Shown here piece by piece: positions 5,038 to 39,577 of a DNA stretch of 64,000 bases. Made by a program: the position numbers and the translations under genes. Numbering within the stretch: position 1 is the first letter of the stretch; each line of letters opens with the position of its first letter. A model generated the notes under the pieces. The model made no database searches. It worked only from the letters and a program-made list of their open reading frames with translations, and was not told where the DNA came from. Origin of the DNA: Bacteroidota bacterium (GTDB taxonomy: Bacteria; Bacteroidota; Bacteroidia; Bacteroidales; UBA12481); contig JABHCC010000032.1 of assembly GCA_018669475.1 (NCBI GenBank), positions 6,058-70,057 of the forward strand. The letters run 5' to 3'.

Positions 5038-6291
5038 ATGAGAAAAAAAAACAATTTAAAACATCAATCTGATTACAGTCAGACTATTTCAGAACTGAAC
5101 AAGTCATTTTCATTGATTACTGATCTTGTGCAGTTAAGAAACAATTTTGTTACCCGGATCAAAGAAATTTCGAATATCGAGTCCTTAGAAGTTTTTCTTC
5201 TTGATCCCGATTATAATCGCTTTAAACCTATCGCCGAACAGGATCATTCTTCGCAGCCCAACAGGGATATATACTTTAACCCCAACGACAAATTGATATT
5301 CTGGCTTAAGGTGAATAAAGTTTTGTTGAATATCTTGGATGACCCTGCAATATTTAACTTTTTTACCGAAAGGGAAAAAGATGTATTGCTTAAACTTGAT
5401 GCTGAAATCGTGTATCCTTTCGTGCTTATGAACCAGTTGAAAGGGTTTGTATTATTGGGAAAGAAAGAATCGGGAGCATATTCCCAGAATGAATTGGAGA
5501 TATTGACAATCCTTTTTGAGCAGGCGAGTTTTGCTTTTGAGAATGCAATGTTATATATGCAACAAAGGGAGCGTTCCGGCAAAATGTACAGGGCAGATCG
5601 ATTGGCCACTTTGGGAGAACTGGCGGCGGGGGCTGCGCATGAAATAAGGAATCCTCTCACCTCTATTCGAAGCACTATCCAATATCTATCGAACAAGATT
5701 GAAGATCCTGAGGACAGAGAATTAGCTCTCGGTCTCATCTCTGAGGTTGACCGGATCAATGGTATCATTCAGGATATGTTGTCTTTTTCCAAACCTGAAG
5801 ACTTGAAGATTGAGGAAACGGATTTTAAGGATATAATCAATCAAATTATGAGATTGGTCGAAAGTTCTGCAAAGAGCAAGAAGGTTGAAATTGTGATGAA
5901 TTATTTGTCGGTGTATGAAACCATCAATATAGATAATAACTTGATGAAGCAGGCCCTGATCAATATCTTGATGAATGCTTTACAGGCAATTGATGCACAG
6001 GAAGGGCAGATTCAAATAGAAGTAAGAGATATTGCTTCAGAAAATCCTCAATCTGACGAGGATTCAATGTTTCTTCTCGAAATACGGGACAATGGAAAAG
6101 GGATTCCGAAGAACCTACTTGAGAAGATTTTCGATCCATTTTATACAACGAAACAGGAAGGAACCGGATTGGGTTTATCCATTACATACAGTATTATTCA
6201 CAGACATGGGGGAGAAATTAAATTTCAGAGTGAAATTGAAAAAGGGACACTTGTGAAAATCAAGCTTCCCCGAAAGGCAATAAAGCAGTAA
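5038..6291 (+). CDS. Cytoplasmic sensor histidine kinase (GAF-like sensor, HisKA and HATPase domains)
   Basis: H-box AAHEIRNPLTSI, and an N/G1/G2 ATPase region (DNGKGIP, GTGLGL). No TM segments. Confidence 0.85.
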   Translation: MRKKNNLKHQSDYSQTISELNKSFSLITDLVQLRNNFVTRIKEISNIESLEVFLLDPDYNRFKPIAEQDHSSQPNRDIYFNPNDKLIFWLKVNKVLLNILDDPAIFNFFTEREKDVLLKLDAEIVYPFVLMNQLKGFVLLGKKESGAYSQNELEILTILFEQASFAFENAMLYMQQRERSGKMYRADRLATLGELAAGAAHEIRNPLTSIRSTIQYLSNKIEDPEDRELALGLISEVDRINGIIQDMLSFSKPEDLKIEETDFKDIINQIMRLVESSAKSKKVEIVMNYLSVYETINIDNNLMKQALINILMNALQAIDAQEGQIQIEVRDIASENPQSDEDSMFLLEIRDNGKGIPKNLLEKIFDPFYTTKQEGTGLGLSITYSIIHRHGGEIKFQSEIEKGTLVKIKLPRKAIKQ

Positions 6292-6294
6292 ACA

Positions 6295-7668
6295 ATGGAG
6301 CAGAAGATTCTAATAGTTGATGATGAGGCAAGGATCAGGAAAATATTCGCCAAAATCCTTGAGGATGAAGGGTATGTTGTATCTACTGTAGATAATGCTG
6401 AAAGGGCCATAGCTCAGCTAGACAAAATCAAGCCTTTTATCATTCTGATGGATCAGAATATGCCGGGGATGAATGGCATTGAAGCTATGAAACATATCCA
6501 TGTCAAATATCCGGATATAGCAATCATCATTATTACTGCATACGGAGAAATCAGTCTGGCGGTAAAAGCTGTGAAGGAAGGAGCTTACGACTATATAGAA
6601 AAGCCCGTTGACAATGATAAGCTGGTATTATTGATCAACCGGGCCAAAGAACATTTCAGGGTAAGGCATGAACTCAAAACCCTTAAGCAGAAGATTTCGG
6701 ATAAAAACTACTTGAGCCGAATTGTAGCTGAGTCGGAGAAAATGAATCAGGTCATTGAACAGGTTAAGTCTGTAGGCGACACCTATGCTACAGTATTGAT
6801 TCAAGGTGAAAGTGGCACCGGGAAAGATCTGATTGCGAATGCCATTCACCATTATGGGGAGAGGCAGGGCAAACCATTTATTTCCGTTAATTGCGGAGCG
6901 ATTCCAATCACTCTGATAGAGAGCGAACTGTTTGGTCATACAAAAGGAGCCTTTACTGATGCCCGGGAAGCGAAGCAGGGTAAGTTTGTTCAGGCCCACA
7001 ATGGCTCACTATTTTTAGATGAAATTGCCGAGTTGCCCCTGGATGCCCAGGTGAAGCTATTGAGGGTACTTGAAGAAAAAAAGATATTTCCATTGGGGGG
7101 AGGAAGAGCCATCCCAATAGATGTCAGGATTATTGCCGCCACCAATAATAACCTTGAGAATAAAGTGCAAAAGGGGGAGTTTCGATTAGATCTTTTGTAC
7201 AGGCTCAATATTTTTACTATTAACATTCCTCCCCTTAGGGAAAGAAGAGAGGATATTCCAATTCTGGTTGATGTCTTTTTAAATCAATATAATGAACAGT
7301 TTGGCTTAGCGGTAAATAACATTTCCAAAGAAGCCCTTGAAAACATTCTGGGATATAGCTGGCCAGGTAATATCCGGGACCTTCAAAATGCTTTACAAAG
7401 CGCCATGATCCTTTCTAAAAAGGGGACTATCACCATGGAGCATCTTCCGCTTAGAATAAAAGGGTACGATCAGTCAATAAGGCCAGAACTGAGCCTGGTG
7501 GAAGGTTTGGAGAGGAATATGAAGCAGGTGAGCACAAAGGCTGAAAAAGAGATTATCCTTGAAGCATTAAAGGAGTGCCGTTTTAATCGTACCAGGACTG
7601 CTGATTTTCTAAAGATTAGCCGCAAGACCCTGTTCAACAAGATGAAACAATACAATATTGATCTCTAA
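6295..7668 (+). CDS. Sigma-54-dependent response regulator (NtrC family)
   Basis: Receiver domain ILIVDDE...D, AAA+ domain with GESGTGKD and GAFTDA (GAFTGA variant), ESELFGH motif and a C-terminal Fis-type HTH. It starts 4 bp after the kinase gene. Confidence 0.9.
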   Translation: MEQKILIVDDEARIRKIFAKILEDEGYVVSTVDNAERAIAQLDKIKPFIILMDQNMPGMNGIEAMKHIHVKYPDIAIIIITAYGEISLAVKAVKEGAYDYIEKPVDNDKLVLLINRAKEHFRVRHELKTLKQKISDKNYLSRIVAESEKMNQVIEQVKSVGDTYATVLIQGESGTGKDLIANAIHHYGERQGKPFISVNCGAIPITLIESELFGHTKGAFTDAREAKQGKFVQAHNGSLFLDEIAELPLDAQVKLLRVLEEKKIFPLGGGRAIPIDVRIIAATNNNLENKVQKGEFRLDLLYRLNIFTINIPPLRERREDIPILVDVFLNQYNEQFGLAVNNISKEALENILGYSWPGNIRDLQNALQSAMILSKKGTITMEHLPLRIKGYDQSIRPELSLVEGLERNMKQVSTKAEKEIILEALKECRFNRTRTADFLKISRKTLFNKMKQYNIDL

Positions 7669-7942
7669 AAACGACGGGGTAAACATTGAAAAGCCAAAAA
7701 TGCACGAATCAACACAGCCCCGGAAATTGTTTAGGGTATCATACATAAAAAAGGTTTAACACTAATTTCGTTCCTAACTAGTCTATTAGGTGATTAACCA
7801 CTGATTTGCACTTTTGTCTCATTCCATATTGCTTTTTATATTCAAGCGTAATTATGAATGATTGAAAGTAATCCATGAAACTACCGTTAGTAGGAATTTG
7901 CAAGTGTTCATCACTTTCAGTTATACCATGATTCTTTATTAG

Positions 7943-8160
7943 AAATTCCTTCTTCGTAGGTTGAGGAAAAAATAATACATTTGCACTCCCACACCCACAC
8001 TTCTTAGCACACTCACACCCACACCTATTTCGGGATGTAGCTCAGCCAGACACTCACTTGTCAAACATCTCTCTTACTGTTACTTAGAACTGTATTCTTA
8101 AAACATTTCTGACTGTCCTAAAACATTTGCAAATATTTTACAAATTTAAATTAAGCACCT
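7943..8160 (+). repeat. Direct repeat copy 1: a tRNA-Pro promoter-like segment, the first about 19 nt of the tRNA-Pro gene and a ~110-nt downstream arm shared with copy 2
   Basis: aattccttcttcgtaggttgagg-aaaaaataatacatttgcactccc-(CA-rich)-cgggatgtagctcagccag. The core cgggatgtagctcagccag is identical to 13460-13478. Confidence 0.8.
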
Positions 8161-8220
8161 ATCTTTTTGATTAACGAGAATATATGCTAAAACATATAAA
8201 TCAATGTTTCAGCTTGTAGC

Positions 8221-8270
8221 TATATCTAATTGCATATAATTTAGTATATTTATCCATTATTATATCTAAA
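8221..8270 (+). promoter_or_regulatory. Two 20-bp direct repeats (tatatctaaNtNcatataat) immediately upstream of the hipB-like gene; candidate operator/promoter
   Basis: 8221-8240 and 8251-8270 differ at 2 positions. AT-rich with TAnnTTTG-like motifs. Confidence 0.35.
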
Positions 8271-8278
8271 TACATATA

Positions 8279-8488
8279 ATGAAGCAATTAGCAGAGTTTG
8301 TCAAAGAACGGAGAAAAGAAGTCAATCTAACTCAGGAAGAATTCGCTGAACGTGCAGGAGTTGCATTAACAGTAGTACGTAAAATCGAACAAGGTAAAAC
8401 GAATCTGAATATGGATAAGGTTAACTTAGTACTTCAAATGTTTGGGCATGAATTAGCTCCTGTTAACAGAAAAAAAATGAATGAATGA
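8279..8488 (+). CDS. XRE-family HTH DNA-binding protein (HipB-like)
   Basis: 69 aa. LTQEEFAERAGVALTVVRKIEQGK is a classic Cro/C1 HTH. It overlaps the next gene by 4 bp. Confidence 0.7.
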   Translation: MKQLAEFVKERRKEVNLTQEEFAERAGVALTVVRKIEQGKTNLNMDKVNLVLQMFGHELAPVNRKKMNE

Positions 8489-8820
8489 GACAGGGAAAGG
8501 TGTTTTATAAAGATCATTTGGCTGGTATCCTAACTGAAACGAATGAGGGTGAGTATGAATTTCAGTATGATCATCAGTACATAAAAAATCATCGAGATGA
8601 TTTCATCACGTTTACAATGCCGGTCACAGACAAACCATACACCGAGAAACGACTCTTTCCATTTTTTGAAGGATTGATCCCAGAAGGATGGTTGTTAGAT
8701 ATAGCTTCTGAAAACTGGAAAATCAATAAAAATGATCGCATGGGATTACTTCTGGCTTGTTGTCAGAATTGCATCGGTGCAGTAAGTGTGGAACCAATAC
8801 CGGAAGAAGATGGAACATAG
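8485..8820 (+). CDS. HipS-like protein (HipA N-terminal subdomain as a stand-alone ORF)
   Basis: 111 aa, resembling the HipA N-terminal/coupling domain. It overlaps the downstream kinase ORF by 8 bp (atggaacatag). Confidence 0.6.
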   Translation: MRQGKVFYKDHLAGILTETNEGEYEFQYDHQYIKNHRDDFITFTMPVTDKPYTEKRLFPFFEGLIPEGWLLDIASENWKINKNDRMGLLLACCQNCIGAVSVEPIPEEDGT

Positions 8821-9751
8821 ATGTTTATATTGTTACGAAACAGTTGAAAAAAAATTCGACTTTCACGAGAAGTGTTCAATGGAGTTTTTTGGAACACCAA
8901 CACCCCCTAAAATAAAGTATTCGCTTGATCAAATGGATGAGCTCGCGAAAAATGTAGTAGAGCGAAGTGTTTCTGTTCCAGGTGTTCAGCCAAAACTATC
9001 GATGTCCATAATCAAAGAAACAAAGGAAAATTCGGATACGCGATTGACTGTGGTTGGAGCGTTAGGTGGGCACTATATTTTTAAACCACCTTCTGACAAA
9101 TTTCTCGAAATGCCGGAGAATGAACATGTAACAATGCGAATAGCTGAATCTTTTGGAATTCGAGTTGTGCCATCATCCTTGATTCGATTATTATCTGGAG
9201 AACTGTCTTATATAACAAAACGAGTTGACCGGAATGAAACTGGAGCAAAGATACACATGATCGATATGTTTCAAATCACAGAAGCATTTGATAAGTATAA
9301 AAGCTCCATGGAGAAAGTTGGAAAAGCAATAGGCAGCCACTCTAGTAACACTTTGCTTGATAAAACCTTTTTCTTTGATTTAGCTGTGTTCTCATTTCTA
9401 ACCGGAAATAATGATATGCATCTAAAGAATCTCTCTATGATCGAAAATACCTCTGGTTGGGTGTTGTCTCCTGCTTATGATCTATTAAATGTTGCAATAG
9501 TGTTCCCAGAAGATACTGAAGAACTAGCATTGACATTAGTTGGAAAGAAAAAGAAGTTGAAGCGAGAACATTTTGAAAAATTGGGAGAAGGAATGGAATT
9601 GACTCCTAAACAGATCAAAGGGACCTTCAATCGAATGATAAAGAATAAATCAAGAGCATTCAAATTATTAGATCGATCGCTCCTGTCAAAGGATATGAAA
9701 ACTGCATACAAAGAAGTACTTGAAGGGAGGTATCGACAATTAGGACTATAA
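8811..9751 (+). CDS. HipT/HipA-like serine/threonine kinase toxin (HipA C-terminal domain)
   Basis: Catalytic-loop-like NNDMHLKNLSM and SPAYDLLN motifs of HipA_C. The start is taken at MEHRCLY, which overlaps the hipS-like stop. A Cys/His cluster lies at the N-terminus. Confidence 0.65.
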
Positions 9752-9803
9752 GAATAACGGCTTGCATAAAGGAGAATGCAAGTGACCTTCCCCCCTGATA
9801 ATT

Positions 9804-10010
9804 GGAAATTCTTCCTCGTAAGTTGTGAGAAAAAGTAATACATTTGCACTCCCCCACACTCACACTTCTTAACACACCCACACCCACACCCACACCTTCT
9901 CCGGGATGTAGCTCAGCCAGATGCTCATTCATTATACATCTCTCTTTCTGTCACTTACGACTATTCTCTTAAAACATTTGTAAAAATTTTACAAATTGAA
10001 ATAAAGCATG
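9804..10010 (+). repeat. Direct repeat copy 2, same architecture as copy 1 with a longer CACACCC-type tract
   Basis: ggaaattcttcctcgtaagttgtgag-aaaaagtaatacatttgcactccc-(cacacccacacccacacc)-ccgggatgtagctcagccag, plus a downstream arm about 80% identical to copy 1. Confidence 0.8.
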
Positions 10011-10467
10011 AAAAAAACAACTACTACATAATGTGTTAGTTGAGCTTCAGCAAGTTTATTTTAATGCAATTCTGTCAAATGTGAACAATCTTCTTACATA
10101 TTATTCTCTACATAACTTTAGATGCAGGTTTAGAATCAATATGTTGACCTACTAAATCTTCCATTGCACTTGTGCCCGTGTTCCACAAAGTAGAGATTTA
10201 GGAAAGAAAGGAAAAGAGATCAGTGCTCCACATCAAGCGGCTCAAGACATGGTAAAATTGATTCGGGAGGTACGCCTTCAACCCAATGTCTTCTGTTTTC
10301 TAGCTAATTCAAATTTCGCCATTTCTGACGAAATTATGAGAATACTAGACATTCTGTTTCCATCAGGCAATTTCTGCGATCTTATAAATAACTGGTATTC
10401 ACTTGCTATTGCAGCAGAAATGATTGCTTTAGAAAAACAAAATAGACTTGCTTTTAATGCAGAATGT

Positions 10468-11508
10468 CTACCATGGATTAATGGTGGGTGTTATTTTGAT
10501 ATATTCAAGTCTAGTTGTTCTGTTTTTATCCCTGCCTATGCCTGCCTCCCCAATTATACTTATGCTTAAGTAATCATTATCATCTAAATTGAAGTCATTT
10601 GAGTACACTTGACCAGAACTAGAATACCCAATATTGAAGTAGTCTCTTGCAACAATTGCATCTTTAAATACTACTTTAGTTTCATTGACAGCACCTATGA
10701 CCATTCCAAGGTTATAGGTTTCTGCATCATCGGTTCTGGTTCGAATACTGCAATAAGCTTCTACTTTAAAGGAAATCATAGAATCATTTTGTATCTGATT
10801 TTTATTGATCACTATGATTCCAGTTCCCCGATTATTTGTGCCGTCGCCTACTTCCAACATTGGAATGATCGGTTCATATCGAAATTTAAAATCTCCCTCA
10901 TTTTCTTTATACCCAAAATATTTGATGGCTGGGTCGAAATCTGGAAATGCTATTTGCTTATTATGTGGGTATGGAGCAACCCTTTTTTGTACCAATAATC
11001 CTGGGCTTAGCTTTCTGATATTGTGATTCTCATCTACACCAACGACCATTTCTGCAACCTCAACAAGAGAATTATCAGGATAGTTGATACCCTGAACTGA
11101 ACCCCTTGGTTCAAAAGGGGCTCTTTGTGTGAAATCCAAAAGAAAATGAGAGATTATGACTAATTCGATAATCTCATTTTTGTCTTGTGACGGTTCATTA
11201 TTCTTAGATACAATAATTTGATATTTGGCAATGCCCAATTGCCTGGTTAATATGGATAAGTCTGAACTTGGAGATAGCTCGATTGATTCAACAATTTCAT
11301 TTCCGGAAAGATTAACTAGTTCATAATTTGAATCATGTGATTGATTGTGATTTTTAGCTTTTTGGGGGTTCAAAGATAAATCTATAACCTCGACATGCTT
11401 TTCATTGCATATAGTTTGTACAAGGATCGTTTTTTGATCCAAATCAGTACCATTTTTGGCACACGAGAGACCAAGTAGGAGGATTAAGATAATGAAGAAT
11501 GACTTCAT
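10468..11508 (-). CDS. Hypothetical lipoprotein
   Basis: MKSFFIILILLLGLSCAKNG lipoprotein signal. The start codon is 1 nt after the sulfatase stop (taaaatg). Confidence 0.55.
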   Translation of the reverse strand: MKSFFIILILLLGLSCAKNGTDLDQKTILVQTICNEKHVEVIDLSLNPQKAKNHNQSHDSNYELVNLSGNEIVESIELSPSSDLSILTRQLGIAKYQIIVSKNNEPSQDKNEIIELVIISHFLLDFTQRAPFEPRGSVQGINYPDNSLVEVAEMVVGVDENHNIRKLSPGLLVQKRVAPYPHNKQIAFPDFDPAIKYFGYKENEGDFKFRYEPIIPMLEVGDGTNNRGTGIIVINKNQIQNDSMISFKVEAYCSIRTRTDDAETYNLGMVIGAVNETKVVFKDAIVARDYFNIGYSSSGQVYSNDFNLDDNDYLSISIIGEAGIGRDKNRTTRLEYIKITPTINPW

Positions 11509-11509
11509 T

Positions 11510-13054
11510 TTAATTGTTTTTATTATCGTACTCATCCAAAAAAATGGGATTGCCTAAAATGCTCATTGTTTCTGGATTCCAATTTGGGTTTTCAATATAG
11601 TCTTTTTGTAGTGGGACTTTTCTTGATATCATCCAATTCTCAGCTTCTTCCCTCATTTTGTCAAATATTTCTTTGTTGCTCTCAGCCACACTCGTTTCTT
11701 CCCCTACTTTTAAATCATACAAATAGGCAATGTTATATTCAAATAAGTGCATAAACTTCCATCGTTGATTATAGACTGTTATGCCAGGAACCATCTCAAA
11801 ATAATTGTTTACTCTACCGCCATGCCCAGTTGGGACATAGCTGCCTTGATACATATAAATATTTCGATCATCAAATCCTTGACGATTGTTTTCTAAAAGT
11901 AATGGCATTAGGCTCGTTCCATCTAGTTCTTGCGGTACAGATTTTATACCAGCCACATCCATCAAAGTTGGATAGATATCAAGTCCGGTAACAACAACAT
12001 CATCAATAACACCTGGTTTTATTTTCTTTGGATAATGAATAAAGAAAGGGACTCGTATCCCATTTTCAAATGGTGTACCTTTTGATCCTCGAAGTGGTGG
12101 AGCCTTTGTGATCTTATGGCCTCCATTATCAGAAGTAAAAACGATAATTGTCTTATCAAGGATCTTTTTATTTTCAAGGACAGCAACTATTCTGCCAATA
12201 CTTTCGTCAACAGCCTTTATCATCGCTCCATATGTTGGGTTATCATGCCCGTGTGCGCTTTCTCTATTGTCAAAGAAATCAATTCTTTCTTGGGTAGCTT
12301 GAAATGGAGAATGGACATTGTAGTACCAAAGGTTTAAATAAAATGGTTCTTTACGATCATATCGTTCGATGTAACTTACAACTGAATCTGTTAATTTATC
12401 AGTTAGGTATTCACCGTCCTTAACAATGAAATTATTCAAATTAAAGTAGCCAAAGTATCCTCCTTTAGGAACGCCCTGAGGTGAGCCTTGATCGCCCCCT
12501 GCAAAATTAATATCGAAACCGTAGTGTAATGGTCCCTTGATGCCGGCACCAAATTTCCCCATATGAACAGTCTGATAGCGATTAAGCTTCAACATTTTTG
12601 GAATAGTGATCAGATTCTTATCAAAAGAATCATGATTTTCCCAAGGGTAGAGTTTTATTGTTTCCCCACCAGTATCGGCTATTCTGGAAATTGTCGTTAT
12701 CAAACTATGTGCTTTGGTTCTGCTGGCATCCTGACCAGTTAAACATGCGATTCGACTTGGAGTACAGATTGGGGCGGGAGAATAACCTCGAGTAAAAACA
12801 ACACCATTATTTGCCAATTTATCTATTGCTGGAGTATGATAGAAGTTATTCTGATCATATTTGTTGGTAGCCTTACCATAATGATCATATCCTTGCATGT
12901 AATGAACATCCTTCCAGCCCAGATCATCAACATTCACAAAAATTATATTTGGTTTGTCTTCAGAAATATTTTGACTTATTAGTATCCATATTCCTATGAT
13001 GGCAGCACACGAAACTATAGCTATTAGGATCTTGAAATAATGTTTCTTGGTCAT
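11510..13054 (-). CDS. Arylsulfatase (formylglycine-dependent sulfatase family)
   Basis: Sulfatase signature C-T-P-S-R (APICTPSRIACLTGQ) and metal-binding D/N residues. Signal-anchor N-terminus. The start is taken at the internal MTKKHYF. Confidence 0.85.
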   Translation of the reverse strand: MTKKHYFKILIAIVSCAAIIGIWILISQNISEDKPNIIFVNVDDLGWKDVHYMQGYDHYGKATNKYDQNNFYHTPAIDKLANNGVVFTRGYSPAPICTPSRIACLTGQDASRTKAHSLITTISRIADTGGETIKLYPWENHDSFDKNLITIPKMLKLNRYQTVHMGKFGAGIKGPLHYGFDINFAGGDQGSPQGVPKGGYFGYFNLNNFIVKDGEYLTDKLTDSVVSYIERYDRKEPFYLNLWYYNVHSPFQATQERIDFFDNRESAHGHDNPTYGAMIKAVDESIGRIVAVLENKKILDKTIIVFTSDNGGHKITKAPPLRGSKGTPFENGIRVPFFIHYPKKIKPGVIDDVVVTGLDIYPTLMDVAGIKSVPQELDGTSLMPLLLENNRQGFDDRNIYMYQGSYVPTGHGGRVNNYFEMVPGITVYNQRWKFMHLFEYNIAYLYDLKVGEETSVAESNKEIFDKMREEAENWMISRKVPLQKDYIENPNWNPETMSILGNPIFLDEYDNKNN

Positions 13055-13403
13055 ATTCCTAATTGTGTATTTGGAAAAAAATATCAAATTTAAGATCGTA
13101 AAATACTTTGTATCTGCAAAAGTAGACAATCTTATAAAAACAGAAGCGATTGAGGTTCCTGAATTTGAATTTATTGATGTTGAGGCAGGGTTGGCACGGG
13201 TTGGAGGAAATTCTTCTCTGTTGTGGGTATGAACCCTAGCTTTCCTTTGGTATATTTGTTACTGGATGTATAAACGGAGGATCTTTGTTCGGATTTAATA
13301 CTAGTGATTAGCTTTCCAAGGTGCAAAAAATCTCACTACATGCCTCAAGGCAGAATCTGGCATAACACCCAATGAGTACAAAAAGAAACACCAAATAAAT
13401 AGT

Positions 13404-13478
13404 TAATTCTTCCTTCGCAGGTTGATGAAAAAATAATACATTTGCACTCCCAACACAACTCGGGATGTAGCTCAGCCA
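13404..13478 (+). repeat. Direct repeat copy 3 (the native tRNA-Pro promoter and 5' end); lacks the CA-rich tract
   Basis: taattcttccttcgcaggttgatg-aaaaaataatacatttgcactccc-aacacaact-cgggatgtagctcagccag. Contains a TAcaTTTG -7-like element about 16 nt upstream of the tRNA 5' end. Confidence 0.75.
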
Positions 13479-13534
13479 GGTTAGAGTACCCGTCTGGGGG
13501 GCGGGGGGCCGGAAGTTCAAATCTTCTCATCCCG
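13460..13534 (+). tRNA. tRNA-Pro: tRNA-Pro (anticodon GGG)
   Basis: Hand-folded cloverleaf: acceptor CGGGATG/CATCCCG, D-arm GCTC-AGCCAGGTTA-GAGT, anticodon stem CCCGT/GCGGG with loop CTGGGGG (U33, anticodon GGG), 5-nt variable loop, T-arm GGAAG-TTCAAAT-CTTCT, discriminator A. CCA is not encoded. Confidence 0.8.
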
Positions 13535-13547
13535 ACGGCTGAAAATG

Positions 13548-13581
13548 AAGCAGTTACTCATTAATCTGAGTAGCTGCTTTA
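13548..13581. terminator. Hairpin between tRNA-Pro (+) and the convergent hydrolase gene (-)
   Basis: agcagttactca-ttaatc-tgagtagctgct, a 12-bp stem with 1 mismatch. The flanking T-runs are weak. Confidence 0.35.
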
Positions 13582-13604
13582 TCATTTAATGCAAATTTGC
13601 AAAG

Positions 13605-15992
13605 CTATTCCAGGACATGTTTGCTCTCGACCCTAACTTTCACACCTGACACATACATACCAGCATCATCTGTACTTCTGGATTGGGATCTAAACCTTAC
13701 ATATGAAATACCGCGGAGACTGTTATTCCTGCCTGACAATTCTTCAATAAACTGATCATCAATCATAACCTTACAGACTGATTGTGATGGATCATCAACC
13801 TGAACCCAATTGAGCGTCATGGTATACCACCTGCCCTTCTCCATTTTAAATGTTGGCGTGATCTGTCCACTGGCGGGAATATCAAGAACATACATGGCTG
13901 TTTCTCTTCCCTGATTGTCAATCGGCTGAAACCACCGGTCATTCAGGGCAATATGACTGCCTTTAAAGCCCTCATTCAACAGCAGATCAATTTCTATTTG
14001 GCCATTGATTCCTGCTGGGAAATTCCAAACGGCTCCATCTCTTTGGCTAAATACAGTCGTATCAGCCGGACGTCTAATATGCAACACATTTCTATCCGGA
14101 TACTGCGGATGCCTGACCAATATTGCACCTTCTTTTCGCTCATAGTTGTGGTGATACAGCCTCTTGTAAACTGCGGGTCTGATCATGATTTTTTGTCTGC
14201 TCCAGTTCTCTAATCCCTGAGAAAAATCTTCATCTCTAGATTTTTGATAGATCCAATCGGGATCAACCAGCAAGAAGGATCGGTGTTTGGGCGCTTGTCC
14301 GACAGCAACCAGCAGATTTCCTTCCCGTGTTTCGACAATTTTTGATTCATTCAATCCTTTATCGCCTGGGTGATTAATAAACCCACCATTCCGAAGAGGA
14401 TCCAGAGCCAATTCACGAAACCCTGTCCAGCTTATACCGTCATCCTCTGAAATCGCAATATGCAAAACTTCACGACCAGTGAAATTCCATTTATCCAGCG
14501 TCACCTCAGGACGCAGGGCTTTGGCATTGTTCCAAATCAGCACAATGCGCTCATCTTTCAGCTTCTTCAAGGTGACCCAGCTATTATCACCACAATACAG
14601 ATCCGTTTTAATTGGTTCAGACCATGACGCACCCAAATCTGTGGATGTAGACTGATAGATATTGAAGTTTGAGTTTCTGATATACATGAGAATGCTTCCG
14701 TCTCTGAGCTGAACCATGGTGGGTTCAACCGCTCCGGTTTGCCAGATATTCGGAATCGTATTGGGCACATTTATTCTATCCGACACCTGCCAGGATTGAC
14801 CTTCATCATCAGAATAAAAAGTCCCACAGCCTAAAGAGCCGCCATGAAAACCACAAATAACCCTCTTCTTTTCTCCATTGTCCACCCAAATTGCATTGCC
14901 ATAAGAGATCGTATTGATTGGCGTATCATCTGGCGTATGCATTTCCTGAAATGTCCAATCTTTCCATTGATTACTCGATCGGGCCAGCATGAAACTATTG
15001 CCTCTGTCGCTATAGAAGACCAGGAATTCTCCGGTAACAGGACTAATGGTGGAGAAACACTGAGCTGGATTGCCGGGGGTGATAACTAAGGATTTTGATT
15101 CTGTCCATGATCTTCCTTCGTCACTGGTCATCTTATAAAAAACCGTATCCGTAAATCCACCGTGATCCCAGTCTCCTTTCCTAAAGACAAATACCGAATT
15201 CCCTTCATAATCGTTGACAAGCGTAGTCCCCTCGTTTGATGAAGGTTCTCCTAAATAGATTGGAGGCTGTGCTTCATTGATCCTGATTCTATTAGCAATT
15301 AATTCCGAACTTATTTTATGTCCGGCATCATTGGGATGCACCCCATCAAGTAAGAGTTCATCTCTCAACTCCAGGCTGCCGTTGCCATATGATTCAAAAG
15401 CCTTGTAGATATCTATGAGTTCAACAAGCTCTTCATTCGCTAAATCACGACAGGCTTGTGCATATTCAGCGAGCCTGACGTGTCTCCAATATTCCTTATT
15501 TGAGCCAAAAGCATTGGGTGTCATGAGAAGGACTATACTTTCTGATTCATGAAGCTTTTGAACCATATATCTCAGGTTCTCTTTGTATTTGTCGAGGGGA
15601 ATCCTGGATTCCCCTTGTTGTCCACCACCATCAATATAGGAGTCGTTTATTCCAAACTGAATAATTACAATATCCGGATCATGATCAAGAACGGCCGTCT
15701 GAAATCGATCCAGCCCATGGGCCCATTTGTGCTTATTGTTATCTGTGAGCCTTCCGGTATGGCTACCCCCTACCCCGCTGTTGATCACCCTGCATGTGAT
15801 TCCTGATCCAGCTAATAAATCCGGTAGGCGATCAGAATACACACTATCAATCGTTCTTCTCGGAGCTGTAGTAGAATTTCCAAACGCGACGATAGTTAAA
15901 CTATTCTGGTCATCTTGAGCCAGGGTAAAGTTCGAGAATATTGTATAGGCCAATAGTAGTGTCAAGAGATACCTGATTGAAAAAGCAGACAT
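13605..15992 (-). CDS. Secreted bifunctional-looking hydrolase: SGNH/GDSL esterase domain fused to a BNR-repeat sialidase-like domain
   Basis: SGNH blocks FGNSTT, GINDS and DGVHPN, followed by four Asp-box repeats (TSDEGRSW, SDDEGQSW, STDLGASW, SEDDGISW). The start is taken at MSAFSIRY, which is followed by a signal peptide; the tracked ORF begins at an upstream GTG. Confidence 0.7.
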   Translation of the reverse strand: MSAFSIRYLLTLLLAYTIFSNFTLAQDDQNSLTIVAFGNSTTAPRRTIDSVYSDRLPDLLAGSGITCRVINSGVGGSHTGRLTDNNKHKWAHGLDRFQTAVLDHDPDIVIIQFGINDSYIDGGGQQGESRIPLDKYKENLRYMVQKLHESESIVLLMTPNAFGSNKEYWRHVRLAEYAQACRDLANEELVELIDIYKAFESYGNGSLELRDELLLDGVHPNDAGHKISSELIANRIRINEAQPPIYLGEPSSNEGTTLVNDYEGNSVFVFRKGDWDHGGFTDTVFYKMTSDEGRSWTESKSLVITPGNPAQCFSTISPVTGEFLVFYSDRGNSFMLARSSNQWKDWTFQEMHTPDDTPINTISYGNAIWVDNGEKKRVICGFHGGSLGCGTFYSDDEGQSWQVSDRINVPNTIPNIWQTGAVEPTMVQLRDGSILMYIRNSNFNIYQSTSTDLGASWSEPIKTDLYCGDNSWVTLKKLKDERIVLIWNNAKALRPEVTLDKWNFTGREVLHIAISEDDGISWTGFRELALDPLRNGGFINHPGDKGLNESKIVETREGNLLVAVGQAPKHRSFLLVDPDWIYQKSRDEDFSQGLENWSRQKIMIRPAVYKRLYHHNYERKEGAILVRHPQYPDRNVLHIRRPADTTVFSQRDGAVWNFPAGINGQIEIDLLLNEGFKGSHIALNDRWFQPIDNQGRETAMYVLDIPASGQITPTFKMEKGRWYTMTLNWVQVDDPSQSVCKVMIDDQFIEELSGRNNSLRGISYVRFRSQSRSTDDAGMYVSGVKVRVESKHVLE

Positions 15993-16324
15993 TGTAGTGA
16001 CTTTAATTTGTATTACATATACAAATGTAGAATAATTATCGAGATCAGAACCAAGACCATATCTACTCACTTTTTCAAATGCAACAAGATTAAGGTTTTG
16101 TTCTCTTCCCCAGTGGCCGCCTCAATTTTGTCAGCAATCAAATCCCGAAGCGCCGGATCTATTGCTAGTCCGTTCACTTCAGTGTATCCCCCGGCACTTA
16201 CAACCAAACTCATGTCAGAATAGCATTTTTTAAAATATACAATTTCTTAATAGAATCTTACCTATCTTTGATAACCCCCATTATAAAAGACCTGATTACA
16301 ACCCAAATATCCTAAAACACAACC

Positions 16325-36529: not shown

Positions 36530-36751
36530 AATTATTGAATATAATGTTAAACTTAAAATATCAATACAAATAAGATGCCAATTTATTAAAAAAAGGAATA
36601 CGAATTACAACAACAAATCAATACATATATTGATATATATCAATGTTTGGGCAGATATATGTCACAAAGGCCCTGTTTAATTTGTAATCATTCTTTTTCA
36701 AAACTTTTGTATGATTGTAAAACTTGTAATTCGAATCAATTGCATACTCAA

Positions 36752-39577
36752 ATGATAAAAAGCAAAGGGATTAAAACAGGCATAATACTTAGAGTGACCT
36801 TACTTCTGATTACAATTCTTATGAGTCAAAACCTCACTATGGCTCAGAGTAATGAGGATTGTTTTATGTGTCATGAAGATCCTGAACTTACTGCCATGAG
36901 AAATGGTCGTACAGTCTCGATGCACATAAGGACAAACGCACTGGAAAATTCGGTTCATAATGATTTCGATTGCACTTATTGCCATGAAGATGCTGCTGTG
37001 GAAGAATTTCCTCATCCGGAGAAATTGCAAGCGGTAAATTGCGGTAATTGTCATGACGAGGCCATGGAAAAATTTGATCGTGGGATACATGGACAGGCTT
37101 TACGATTAAAAGAAATTTACGCTCCAAACTGTAATGAATGTCATGGCTCACACAACATCCTAAAAGGCAGTAACCCAAAATCTTCCACCTATAAGATGAA
37201 CATACCAATCTTATGCGGCAAATGTCACAGAGAAGGTGCTCCTGTTGCAAGGGTTTATGATATCGGTGAGCAAAATATTCTTGAAAACTACAGTCAGGAC
37301 ATTCACGGTATTGGTCTTTTTGAAAAGGGTTTAATTGTTTCAGCTACATGTAATGATTGCCATGGAAATCACGAGGTTTTACCACATTCAAGCATAAATT
37401 CGAGTATCTCAGCCAAAAATATTGCATCAACCTGCATGAAATGCCATACGAAGATTGAAGAAGTTCATGTTCAGGTTATCCGTGGAGAATTATGGGAGGA
37501 AAAACCAGGAGCTATACCCGCCTGCTCCAGCTGCCACATTCCCCATAAAGTAAGCAAGCATAATGTAACACCAAATATTGCCGATAAATCTTGTTTGGTA
37601 TGTCACGAGAAAGATGATGTTCATAAGGTTGTAGCTGACAGCACTATATCTCTTGTAGTAAACAAAGAGGATCTTGACAATTCTGTGCATCAGAATATTT
37701 CATGTGTTAAGTGCCATTCTGATGTTACAAGTAACAGAAGGCGACCTTGCGAAACTGTTGGACCAGTGAATTGCTCAAATTGTCATGCCGAAACATCAAA
37801 ACTATTTTCTGAGAGCGGGCATGGAAAAGCTCTTGAAGCTGACCACCCCAATGCTCCATATTGTACTGATTGTCACGGCACTCACAAAGCACAATCACGA
37901 TATGATGATACCTCACCGACTTACAGAACCAATATCCCGGATCTATGTGGTGATTGCCATTACAATGATGGCAAGGCAAACGAATTTGCTGACTTGGCAG
38001 AAAAAGATGCCCTGCCGGATTATTCATCGAGTATTCATGGCAAAGGTCTGTCTGAGAAAGGATTGATTGTGAGTGCTGTTTGTACCGACTGTCATTCAAC
38101 TCACTATATTCTAGGGGAAGAGGATGAACGGTCTTCAATTTTTCCCAAAAATATTCCTGCCACTTGTTCCACTTGCCATAAAGGAGTATATGACACTTAT
38201 ATCCTGAGTGATCACGGAATTGGAAACGCAGCTCCCACTGATGGCGAACACGAATATCCAACCTGTGTAAATTGCCACTCTTCGCATTTTATTGGCGCAA
38301 GCGGTCCAGATCATTTTAAAGAAGAGATTACACAGCGCTGTGAGCAATGCCATGAGGAAACTGCAGAAACATATCTGGATACTTATCATGGCAAAGCGCA
38401 TCTTCTGGGTCATGCAAAAGCTGCCAGGTGTTCTGATTGCCATGGGGATCATAACATTTACAATATGAATAACCCTAAATCCATGGTTGCCAGTCAGAAT
38501 ATTGTGGAAACATGCAGGCAATGTCATCCGGATGCTAATGCACGATTCACGGGCTACCTGACTCATGCAACCCATCATAATAAAGAGAAGCACTCAGCCC
38601 TGTATTATACATTTTGGGCTATGACCTTCCTTCTTACAGGCGTATTCGTATTTTTCGGTATTCATTTGCTGCTATGGATTCCACGATCCATTCAGGGACG
38701 AAGAGAAAGGAAGAAGCATGAACAACAGCCAAAGGGCCTGACCAGCAAATATTATATCCAACGATTCTCACGGAATCAGAGGGGAACACATATTTTTGTT
38801 ATAATTAGTTTCCTCCTGCTGGCCTTTACCGGGATGATACTCAAATTCGCCAATATGGAATGGGCCAGTACATTAGCTGGATGGATAGGTGGAATTGAAG
38901 TTACCGGGCGCTTACATCGATTAGGGGCTGTTATCACTTTCGGATACTTCTTCTTCCATCTGATTTCATTGATAATAATAAAAAGGAAGCGAAAAATTCC
39001 TTCTAAACGTTTCATATTCGGACCAAATTCTCTGATGTTTAACCTGACAGACATTAAGGATTTTGTAGCAACAATAAAATGGTTTGTTGGTCGGGGGCCA
39101 AAACCCGAATACGGACGCTGGACTTATTGGGAAAAATTCGACTATATGGCCGTTTTCTGGGGGGTTGCTGTTATTGGAATATCCGGACTCATGCTATGGT
39201 TCCCTGAGCAGTTCACCCTGGTTTTTCCAGGCTGGCTTATCAATATTGCTCAAATCATTCATTCAGATGAAGCTCTTCTGGCCGTAGGATTTATCTTTAC
39301 AATACACTTTTTCAATACCCACCTGCGACCTGAAACTTTCCCTATGGACACAGTGATTTTTACTGGTCTTGTTCCTTTCGAGGAATTCAGAAAAGATAGA
39401 CCTCGGGAATATAAGTACCTGAAAGAATCGGGAAGATTGAAGAAAGTTCTCATTAAAAAAGATGAGCTGAATACCGGGCGTGAGAAATTAATCCGCCTCA
39501 TGGGATTCATATTCGTCGCTTTGGGATTAACTATGGTCGGGCTGATTATTTATTCCGTATTGATTGGATACGTATAA
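36752..39577 (+). CDS. 19-heme c-type cytochrome fused to a C-terminal multi-TM cytochrome-b-like (HydC/FdnI-type) membrane domain; CbcL-like quinol:electron-acceptor oxidoreductase candidate
   Basis: 19 CxxCH motifs were counted in the periplasmic part, followed by 6-7 TM helices with conserved His residues (RGTHIFVII..., HRLGAV..., HSDEALLAV..., NTHLRPE). The start is taken at MIKSKG, followed by a signal peptide. Confidence 0.75.
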   Translation: MIKSKGIKTGIILRVTLLLITILMSQNLTMAQSNEDCFMCHEDPELTAMRNGRTVSMHIRTNALENSVHNDFDCTYCHEDAAVEEFPHPEKLQAVNCGNCHDEAMEKFDRGIHGQALRLKEIYAPNCNECHGSHNILKGSNPKSSTYKMNIPILCGKCHREGAPVARVYDIGEQNILENYSQDIHGIGLFEKGLIVSATCNDCHGNHEVLPHSSINSSISAKNIASTCMKCHTKIEEVHVQVIRGELWEEKPGAIPACSSCHIPHKVSKHNVTPNIADKSCLVCHEKDDVHKVVADSTISLVVNKEDLDNSVHQNISCVKCHSDVTSNRRRPCETVGPVNCSNCHAETSKLFSESGHGKALEADHPNAPYCTDCHGTHKAQSRYDDTSPTYRTNIPDLCGDCHYNDGKANEFADLAEKDALPDYSSSIHGKGLSEKGLIVSAVCTDCHSTHYILGEEDERSSIFPKNIPATCSTCHKGVYDTYILSDHGIGNAAPTDGEHEYPTCVNCHSSHFIGASGPDHFKEEITQRCEQCHEETAETYLDTYHGKAHLLGHAKAARCSDCHGDHNIYNMNNPKSMVASQNIVETCRQCHPDANARFTGYLTHATHHNKEKHSALYYTFWAMTFLLTGVFVFFGIHLLLWIPRSIQGRRERKKHEQQPKGLTSKYYIQRFSRNQRGTHIFVIISFLLLAFTGMILKFANMEWASTLAGWIGGIEVTGRLHRLGAVITFGYFFFHLISLIIIKRKRKIPSKRFIFGPNSLMFNLTDIKDFVATIKWFVGRGPKPEYGRWTYWEKFDYMAVFWGVAVIGISGLMLWFPEQFTLVFPGWLINIAQIIHSDEALLAVGFIFTIHFFNTHLRPETFPMDTVIFTGLVPFEEFRKDRPREYKYLKESGRLKKVLIKKDELNTGREKLIRLMGFIFVALGLTMVGLIIYSVLIGYV

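Follow-up and report, generated by a model that had tools for sequence, protein, structure and literature searches.

Why should the promoter and first nucleotides of a proline tRNA gene stand three times on one strand, twice upstream of the gene and once as part of it? A preliminary description of this 64,000-nt stretch of DNA (the window) took the copies for attL/attR-type sites left by two successive site-specific integrations, with integrase-less cargo between them, and offered duplication of the tRNA promoter as a fallback.

The triple repeat itself is confirmed. The 19-mer CGGGATGTAGCTCAGCCAG is found on the + strand with 0 mismatches at 8031-8049, 9902-9920 and 13461-13479, and the promoter block AAAAANTAATACATTTGCACTCCC, also with 0 mismatches, at 7967-7990, 9830-9853 and 13428-13451, where the chance expectation is 0. 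A 48-nt block upstream of the promoter starts at 7944, 9807 and 13405. Among 100 dinucleotide-preserving shuffled controls there were no matches to CGGGATGTAGCTCAGCCAG, even with 3 mismatches tolerated. The third copy is, as described, the working promoter of tRNA-Pro, with a -7 box TAcaTTTG and a TTCG 19 nt upstream that follow the Bacteroidota consensus of a TAnnTTTG-type -7 box and -33 TTCG (PMC7366714). Its tRNA-Pro(GGG), at 13461-13536, is called by both ARAGORN and Rfam; the window has no other tRNA.

Copies 1 and 2 also share the downstream arm of about 110 nt noted earlier (8050-8157 and 9921-10008, 80-88% identity), of which copy 2 lacks 20 nt. In both, a CA-rich leader, (CACACC)n, of 40-50 nt separates promoter from core; the tRNA-Pro gene itself has just 13 nt at this place. 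The -7 box region varies no more across the three copies than the 19-nt core does. The three-copy arrangement is not an assembly artefact: the spacing of the repeats is identical at every region-spanning locus returned by two partly overlapping look-ups (11 and 24 contigs, 35 over both, from NCBI, ENA, JGI and Logan assemblies). The features are as follows.

7940..8157, + strand: unit copy 1, full member of the unit family
7953-7956, +: putative -33 TTCG of copy 1
7976-7983, +: -7 box of copy 1, TACATTTG
about 7988-8029, +: CA-rich leader of copy 1
8030-8049, +: tRNA-Pro-like 5' block of copy 1
8050-8157, +: arm of copy 1, containing the TCTTAAAACATTT repeat twice and the hairpin ATTTGCAAATATTTTACAAAT
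8158..8185, +: motif X, CCTATCTTTTTGATTAACGAGAATATAT, between the copy 1 arm and the hipBST cassette
8178..9762, +: hipBST toxin-antitoxin cassette, bounds from nucleotide homology with other genomes
8221-8240 and 8261-8280: operator-like repeats TATATCTAAWTNCATATAAT of the hipBST cassette
8279-8488, +: hipB, HTH_3
8485-8820, +: hipS, HipA N-terminal domain
8786-9751, +: hipT ORF, HipA_C; starts in public gene calls at 8810 or 8879
9798..10008, +: unit copy 2, full member of the unit family
9839-9846, +: -7 box of copy 2, which has a 52-nt CA-rich leader
9901-9920, +: tRNA-like block of copy 2, with its arm at 9921-10008
10468..11535, -: protein without a family match, 355-aa ORF; called publicly as 346 aa, 10468-11508
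11510..13129, -: sulfatase, called publicly as 514 aa, 11510-13054
13405..13460, +: working promoter and 13-nt leader of tRNA-Pro, homologous to the left part of the units
13437-13444, +: -7 box of tRNA-Pro
13461..13536, +: intact tRNA-Pro(GGG), whose first 19-23 nt correspond to the tRNA-like block of the units
13605..16070, -: 821-aa GDSL esterase / BNR sialidase-like protein

A dispersed family of units

Copies 1 and 2 are members of a larger set. A profile search of about 90 kb of this marine Bacteroidota genome finds at least 5 full copies of a unit of about 225 nt. One (L009u; L009:1220-1449) is on the window's own contig, at about window positions -2486 to -2257, which is 10.4 kb before copy 1; copy 2 matches it for about 80 nt beyond the arm, to roughly 10085. 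Two more (L037a, L037:5193-5414, and L037b, 8012-8246) lie either side of an unrelated 753-aa gene on another contig of the same MAG (locus tags HN352_05850, against HN352_01595 here); the 5 kb before them and the 12 kb after them contain no tRNA. Pairwise the units are about 75-85% identical, and their relationships are star-like, without sister pairs. In L037b the tRNA-like block extends over 23 nt; that of L009u has 2 mismatches, and that of L037a is degenerate. Motif X recurs about 45 nt upstream of each L037 unit (L037 5124 and 7943).

Comparison of these copies demonstrates a lineage-specific family, of low copy number in the DNA examined and paralogous to the 5' region of tRNA-Pro(GGG), whose dispersal over two contigs is directly observed. 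A metagenome scan gave few distinct unit loci, and collections of phages, plasmids and viral contigs contained no match to the unit. Rfam, searched with 7000-14500 at E<=1, returned the tRNA (57.9 bits) and, far below threshold, a chance miRNA match. The same promoter 20-mer also drives a tRNA-Phe gene in another organism.

A MITE or REP-type dispersed repeat was considered and rejected: the unit ends carry neither terminal inverted repeats nor target duplications, and the copy number is low (5 full copies in about 90 kb).

The genes between the repeats

The interval between copies 1 and 2 holds adjacent genes for an HTH HipB, a HipA-N-like HipS and a HipA-C kinase HipT, with domain matches to PF01381 (1.1e-11), PF13657 (8.2e-26) and PF07804 (2.6e-42), and also to TIGR03070 and TIGR03071. 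We take this to be a HipBST tripartite toxin-antitoxin system, to which the E. coli O127 type is a close known counterpart. The two share the gene order HTH HipB, HipS (HipA N-terminal) and HipT (HipA C-terminal kinase); the present one, predicted from its genes, differs in belonging to a Bacteroidota lineage with thousands of close homologues. Elsewhere, over about 1.55-1.6 kb, the cassette recurs in unrelated contexts with nucleotide identities of 89.1%, 88.7%, 84.2% and 81.5%, and none of these four loci carries the unit. Genomes with the cassette include Aureibaculum algae and Echinicola strongylocentroti. In contrast, the best non-self homologues of the neighbouring genes have just 58-81% protein identity. 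In one genome (L046) hipBST lies between direct repeats of about 130 nt whose sequence is unlike the unit, and in three others (L044, L054, L055) it has no flanking repeats. These comparisons directly identify the 1.58-kb cassette as foreign DNA, a horizontally spread toxin-antitoxin operon, and its occurrence in other classes of Bacteroidota, with 81-89% of nucleotides identical, bears out the earlier view of it as cargo.

The second interval is of a different kind. The 346-aa protein gene, apparently co-transcribed after the sulfatase, has homologues (49-58% identity) in sulfatase/BNR clusters, and in a related genome (L043) the homologue, of 345 aa, is directly behind a sulfatase that is 81% identical to the one here. 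The pair is found in sulfatase/sialidase clusters of relatives, a setting that matches the neighbouring sialidase-like gene here; the 821-aa product of the latter is of the same functional kind and encoded on the same (-) strand, and tRNA-Pro stands antisense between them. The sulfatase and 346-aa genes resemble an ordinary chromosomal pair for glycan degradation, and their recurrence in such clusters does not sustain the description of them as island cargo. Both intervals are slightly low in GC (about 35-37%, where genes average 40.0 +/- 2.4%); for the sulfatase pair this is common to the L043 orthologues.

Proposed recombination at or between the units

Serial site-specific integration into the D-loop region of tRNA-Pro would make the copies displaced attL-type junctions and the intervals integrase-less remnants, mobilisable in trans. 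CIMEs, described in the literature on ICESt1 and ICESt3 of Streptococcus thermophilus, are att-flanked, recombinase-less remnants of ICEs, mobilisable in cis. Direct repeats around cargo without recombination genes are common to CIMEs and this locus, but the repeats here are units of 225 nt and about 80% identity, not att sites that have an exact core in common, cargo joins them away from the shared core, and no cognate ICE or integrase is present in the DNA examined. Domain searches from 3.7 kb before the window to 64 kb found no recombinase, integrase or transposase, in agreement with the preliminary description of both modules.

In the Islander collection an intact tDNA with a co-oriented end fragment is an accepted configuration, and 159 of 3919 islands have a 5' fragment (PMC4383910). 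The fragments at 8031-8049 and 9902-9920, upstream of the intact gene at 13461-13536 and with accessory genes between, have this form. Three of the four elements on the contig (L009u, copy 1 and copy 2) lie upstream of tRNA-Pro and are co-oriented, which is the geometry of displaced 5' fragments. Integration would also account for this array ending at the tRNA, for the shared point at which all units pass from tRNA (nt ~23) to arm, for the two direct TCTTAAAACATTT repeats of the arm as candidate arm-type binding sites, for the foreign hipBST and for the slightly low GC. Islander islands, however, carry an integrase, have their crossovers only at the anticodon loop or around the T-stem, and show identity from the crossover as far as the end of the gene (PMC4383910), whereas the tRNA match here stops at nt 19-23, in the D-loop. 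The fragments, moreover, include promoter and leader, vary by copy and occur also at a distance from tRNAs.

The preliminary description allowed that the repeat at loci unlinked to tRNA-Pro, or an identical arrangement in related strains, would speak against integration, and both are found. The L037 units are remote from any tRNA, and every region-spanning species contig is alike, with no presence/absence polymorphism among the 35 and no empty site (this comparison covers species contigs; remoter relatives lack synteny at the locus). Nor does the 19-nt core behave as a fixed crossover site, being mutated in L009u and L037a. Cargo meets unit after motif X here and inside the L037a arm at the other locus, so that the hipBST and 753-aa junctions are both off the core; hipBST occurs elsewhere without these arms, the sulfatase pair matches the gene beyond the tRNA in function, with a GC shared by its orthologues, and the CA-rich leader of the units is not in the working promoter. 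Judged from these alignments the tRNA-like block does not serve as a core for recombination, and we regard integration at tRNA-Pro as unlikely.

The units might instead be non-autonomous, recombinogenic promoter cassettes that act as landing pads for gene cassettes through a distant or host recombinase, by a logic like that of dif modules. The two independent unit-cargo-unit arrangements (hipBST and the 753-aa gene) would fit, as would the star-like divergence at ~80%, suggestive of a burst of copying, the position of motif X behind one unit and ahead of two, as if once tandem or circularly permuted, and the other repeats bracketing hipBST in L046. There is precedent in the Xer-dependent dif modules of Acinetobacter, which lack a recombinase and often carry toxin-antitoxin genes (PMC6449649). 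The likeness lies in repeated sites around a small toxin-antitoxin cassette that encodes no recombinase; the difference is that dif modules have inverted 28-bp XerC/XerD sites on plasmids, whereas the brackets here are chromosomal direct repeats of 225 nt with no demonstrated dif-like dyad or other recombinase-type core. The missing inverted repeats and target duplications, the low copy number, the unflanked hipBST of L044, L054 and L055 and the differing cargo junctions of the two pairs also weigh against such cassettes, and the spacer similarity expected of an ex-tandem pair is not significant (P = 0.15-0.44). We think this origin quite improbable.

The units as candidate noncoding RNA genes

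The explanation that we favour, with about even confidence, is that copies 1 and 2 are units of a lineage-specific, transcribed, G-poor noncoding family derived from the 5' region of tRNA-Pro; the fallback of the preliminary description, promoter duplication, lies closer to the data than its integrations. Aligned, the four full units have 20 invariant columns out of 23 in the -7 box/TSS block and 56 out of 108 in the arm (Fisher p=0.0013); the tRNA-like block has 17 out of 20 (p=0.0046 versus the arm). The unit promoter TACATTTG fits TAnnTTTG, with a -33-like TTCG at 19-nt spacing, and an sRNA gene's own promoter is thus indicated, by consensus match alone.

The predicted RNA is no more stable than sequence that has been shuffled (z = -0.08 and -1.43). 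The consensus fold has two short helices with 14 pairs and a covariation term of -0.52 kcal/mol, and the conserved structure expected of an sRNA family was not found in these 5 sequences, informative covariation being nearly absent. Four units retain an AU-rich terminal hairpin, ATTTGYAAA-WWT-TTTACAAAT with TT after it; in three of the four it has a C-A mismatch, and a terminator scan did not call it.

The extra-conserved blocks are precisely those shared with the live tRNA gene, so that short-tract gene conversion could mimic selection. On this basis the units could be neutral relics, a few segmental copies of an old, truncated tRNA-Pro duplicate, functionless and with blocks maintained by conversion. 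The lack of a stable fold, the resemblance of the CA-rich leader to a microsatellite expansion of the native CAACACAAC leader and the clear decay of L037a are in keeping with this. The conserved blocks, however, are of 20-23 nt and split by a leader of 40-50 nt that is absent from the donor, and are therefore poor substrates for conversion. The L037 units, on a different contig, hold the promoter equally well, leader length is stable between strains, and leader and arm are kept at about 70-77% identity in four units, against ~27% in the flanks. We think a neutral origin quite improbable as well.

A close parallel to the favoured noncoding family is FopS, a multicopy sRNA family of Bacteroides with 14 members, in which a canonical promoter precedes an RNA with a single-stranded 5' part and a hairpin at its end (PMC11697453). 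Intergenic copies, a sigma-ABfr-type promoter, a mainly single-stranded 5' part, a terminal hairpin and the proximity of glycan-utilisation genes are common to both. The present unit, known from sequence alone, differs in having no Rfam family, a tRNA 5' fragment, an extremely G-poor CA/CU-rich body and a weak hairpin.

Transcription of the units, and with it any function of the RNA, is our inference. Each unit consists of a canonical Bacteroidota promoter, a CA-rich leader, 19-23 nt of the tRNA-Pro start and an arm of ~110 nt with an AU-rich hairpin at its end. Most likely a single ancestral junction, in which the promoter and 5' end of tRNA-Pro became fused to an unrelated arm, was duplicated; the hipBST cassette, a horizontally spread operon, lies between two adjacent units. 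The units have probably been maintained as transcription units in their own right, and each would give a noncoding RNA of ~165-175 nt that is poor in G and has little structure.

Three copies of the tRNA-Pro promoter and 5′ end

The 19-mer CGGGATGTAGCTCAGCCAG is found at three sites on the + strand of the window, starting at 8031, 9902 and 13461, and a 24-nt promoter block at three, starting at 7967, 9830 and 13428. Fewer than one site is expected by chance in either case, and the three copies noted in the preliminary description are thereby confirmed. The third 19-mer is the 5′ start of tRNA-Pro(GGG) (13461–13536), the sole tRNA within the window. Copies 1 (7940–8157) and 2 (9798–10008) also have in common an arm of ∼110 nt 3′ of this core, and in both a CA-rich leader, (CACACC)n, of 40–50 nt separates promoter from core; at this position the working tRNA-Pro gene has a leader of 13 nt. 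The promoter matches the Bacteroidota consensus, TAnnTTTG at −7 (PMC7366714), which here reads TACATTTG; TTCG, a TTTG-like element, precedes it by 19 nt. The window derives from a marine Bacteroidota MAG (GCA_018645035.1, contig JABGPH010000001.1). Since independent assemblies show the identical arrangement, it is not an assembly artefact.

An exact copy of the 20-mer AATAATACATTTGCACTCCC also lies upstream of a tRNA-Phe gene in another organism, and a near-copy is repeated in tandem in L036 (L034 588–607, L035 271–290, L036 4870–4889). Because this 20-mer also precedes tRNA-Phe, TAcaTTTGCACTCCC may be a general promoter/initiation box of stable RNAs in some Bacteroidota.

A dispersed family of units

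The repeat is not confined to the tRNA-Pro locus. Screening metagenomes for the promoter 20-mer brought up a diverged copy at L037, a locus unrelated to it, where no tRNA is found within the 5 kb upstream and 12 kb downstream that are covered. L037 lies on another contig of the same MAG as the window (locus tags HN352_05850 and HN352_01595). A profile built from three full units was used to find further copies. It identified a second unit in L037, the two (L037a and L037b) lying 2.8 kb apart around a gene for a 753-aa protein without known family, and one more on the contig of the window, where negative positions lie upstream of its start:

L009:1220–1449, at about window −2486: unit L009u, 10.4 kb upstream of copy 1, matched by the profile

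L009u has a GH127 gene on one side and an ABC-transporter operon on the other.

When aligned, the units (∼225 nt) run in the order upstream segment (TAATTGGAAAT...), promoter, CA-rich leader, tRNA-Pro-like block and arm; in the arm TCTTAAAACATTT occurs twice, together with an AU-rich hairpin. Pairwise identity among all units is about 75–85%, with no sister pairs. The tRNA-like block is 19–20 nt long in copies 1 and 2 and 23 nt in L037b; in L009u two of its positions are mismatched, and in L037a its sequence is degenerate. A block that differs in this way is not a crossover core with sharp ends and a constant sequence. Between the arm and the 3′ portion of the tRNA no relationship is detectable. 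Derivation of the arm from a decayed 3′ part, which would make the unit a whole-gene pseudogene, was rejected on local alignments against shuffles (P = 0.2–0.99; L009u alone gave P = 0.022, not significant across five tests). Public contigs of the species at three loci (L003, L006, L014) start or stop inside copy 2 or L009u, consistent with assemblers breaking at repeats.

The preliminary description took the repeats for attL/attR-type sites left by two integrations at tRNA-Pro, and the modules between them for CIME-like elements. L009u and copies 1 and 2 do share one orientation in an array that ends with the tRNA, one junction is common to all units, and islands with a 5′ fragment exist (159 of 3919 in Islander; PMC4383910). 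Serial integration nevertheless fails on four points, namely the lack of an integrase, the wrong position of the crossover, the lack of locus specificity and the inconsistent cargo junctions, and we regard it as improbable, though it retains some weight. No integrase, recombinase or transposase domain is present in ORFs of at least 170 aa at window 26–64 kb, nor is one listed in the public gene tables for −3.7 to 26 kb, so that the reported lack of a recombinase in either module stands. Presence/absence polymorphism was not seen, every retrieved contig of the species that spans the region having the same arrangement. Relatives are uninformative on an empty site, because the surroundings of their homologues of the 821-aa GDSL/BNR protein (71–78% identity) and the 346-aa protein (49–58%) are no longer syntenic and contain no tRNA-Pro. 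Comparison of nearest neighbours for the left and right halves of the units gave no convincing difference, every pair being about 75–88% identical, and a mosaic signal of hybrid att sites was rejected.

When a genome collection was scanned for the core with any base but G after it, four matches came from unrelated phyla and Bacteroidota gave none. Phage, plasmid and viral-contig collections contain no match to the unit, and promoter, arm and leader-core patterns also gave no hits there. An attP on such replicons was rejected, the core matches there being a tRNA-Pro gene in a 42-gene array and one site at a locus edge without a tRNA call. The array lies on a 110-kb IMG/VR viral contig, UViG_3300009082_000018 (L031 3942–8594), for which ARAGORN lists 42 genes (tRNAs and one tmRNA-like); its tRNA-Pro(CGG) has the same 19-mer.

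The hipBST cassette, module 2 and their junctions

HipB, HipS and HipT of module 1 were confirmed by Pfam and NCBIfam, and nucleotide homology gives the cassette sharp ends:

Window 8178–9762: hipBST cassette, 1.58 kb
L044 5351–6952: hipBST in another context
L046 5369–6945: hipBST in another organism
L054 3370–4948: hipBST in another context
L055 3411–4948: hipBST in another context

Identity to other loci is 89.1%, 88.7%, 84.2% and 81.5% over about 1.55–1.6 kb, and the matching loci lie in quite different contexts, including the complete genomes of Aureibaculum algae and Echinicola strongylocentroti. In these genomes, which span Bacteroidia, Flavobacteriia and Cytophagia, the cassette always ends at the same points and has no recombinase linked to it. 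HipT has >7,800 strong homologues, and 90%-identity clusters of HipS span several Bacteroidota orders. Because the cassette reaches 81–89% nucleotide identity elsewhere, whereas the nearest non-self homologues of the neighbouring genes show 58–81% protein identity, we conclude that hipBST has spread horizontally and is foreign cargo; in this respect the preliminary interpretation, which is only partly supported overall, is borne out. The 1.58-kb cassette is thus delimited as one that moves between Bacteroidota classes without any linked recombinase. At L055 an IS21-type transposase (rve + IstB) follows hipBST.

The junctions between cargo and units fall at different points. The cassette begins after a 28-nt motif, X (CCTATCTTTTTGATTWACGRGAATATA), itself 3′ of the copy 1 arm, and in L037a the region of the 753-aa gene takes the place of the distal arm. 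Motif X occurs at:

Window 8158–8185: after the copy 1 arm, abutting hipBST
L037 5124–5151 and 7943–7970: before both units

In L044 and L046, too, hipBST has a weak X-like sequence at its left end. The two unit-cargo-unit pairs, and a motif X that follows one unit and precedes two others, suggest that the units could act as a recombinogenic 'landing pad' or mobile promoter cassette. L046 adds direct repeats of ∼130 nt, 68% identical, that bracket hipBST at 5057–5190 and 6953–7075; they are unrelated in sequence to the units. The right one begins directly behind the stop codon of hipT, which is also the case in the window. Bracketing by long direct repeats is not general, however, holding only in the window and weakly in L046 and missing at L044, L054 and L055, and the unit itself is not present at any other hipBST locus compared. 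An origin as two tandem units that hipBST split apart is compatible with motif X, but the spacer similarity is not significant. The cassette has operator-like repeats of its own.

Module 2 looks like ordinary glycan-degradation DNA with an antisense tRNA gene in it. Its sulfatase and 346-aa protein recur in sulfatase/BNR-sialidase clusters of relatives, as an adjacent pair in L043, and the GDSL/BNR gene just past the tRNA, on the same strand, matches this cluster type. Its GC content, 35–36% against a gene mean of 40.0 ± 2.4%, is somewhat low, as it is in the orthologues. The tRNA-Pro gene (13461–13536) lies antisense between the co-oriented GDSL/BNR and sulfatase genes (11510–16070); comparable genes in relatives adjoin each other without a tRNA (L019 6752/6762; L043 808/852).

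Elsewhere in the window lie genes for a 976-aa multihaem cytochrome (36647–39577; paired CXXCH, MtrC/MtrF-like) fused to cytochrome b561, a TPR/multihaem protein (58399–60750) and a 774-aa protein with the hydrazine-synthase alpha middle domain (61312–63636; PF18582, 7e-34), all of them unusual for a Bacteroidota bin. Partial-length cluster members of the L037 753-aa protein and of the hydrolase at that locus also appear under 'Candidatus Scalindua sp.' bins, pointing to cross-talk, during binning, of this Bacteroidota population with anammox bins of the same samples.

Conservation and possible transcription of the units

Among the four full units, 20 of 23 columns of the −7 box/TSS block and 17 of 20 of the tRNA-like block are invariant, compared with 56 of 108 in the arm (p = 0.0013 and 0.0046 respectively), and in the flanks identity falls to about 27%. 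This conservation argues for a promoter that has stayed functional and for transcription of the units. The predicted transcript, of about 165–175 nt with 8–9% G, would be weakly structured and would end in a conserved, weak AU-rich hairpin with U residues after it. The FopS-type multicopy sRNA families of Bacteroides (PMC11697453) have a similar architecture, in which a canonical promoter is combined with a long 5′ part that is single-stranded and a hairpin at the end.

No Rfam family matches the units. A leader peptide or small ORF in the CA-rich region was rejected, the sole upstream start codon lying inside the −7 box and the frame not being conserved between copies. CA-repeat length does not vary among strains, one of which differs by two SNPs only.

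In view of the conserved promoter and tRNA blocks and the FopS-like architecture, we favour, at roughly even odds, a lineage-specific family of noncoding transcription units, which would go back to one ancestral fusion between an arm of unrelated sequence and the promoter with the 5′ end of tRNA-Pro. The promoter duplication offered as a fallback in the preliminary description is nearer the truth than its att-site islands. The conserved blocks are exactly those in common with the live tRNA gene; conversion by that gene could therefore look like selection on them, and the units may be neutral relics maintained in this way. Their function as RNA is putative. The units fall among known kinds of dispersed repeats, namely tDNA fragments or sRNA-like elements, and are candidates for a family of noncoding RNAs derived from a tRNA. 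A bolder and rather unlikely extension is that they encode abundant G-poor, CA-rich regulatory RNAs made from a tRNA promoter and 5′ end under stable-RNA (growth-rate type) control, whose genes would also be preferred landing or bracketing sites for cassettes such as hipBST. If true, this would be an sRNA family originating in a tDNA 5′ fragment, a route that to our knowledge has not been described for Bacteroidota.

Fragments of tDNA serve routinely as markers of island boundaries; here the 5′ fragment and promoter are instead part of a dispersed unit family. Such units would mislead island finders with a relaxed integrase filter, and caution is needed in island prediction. If transcribed, they would be noncoding RNA genes derived from the 5′ region of a tRNA gene, in uncultured marine Bacteroidota, beside genes for glycan degradation.
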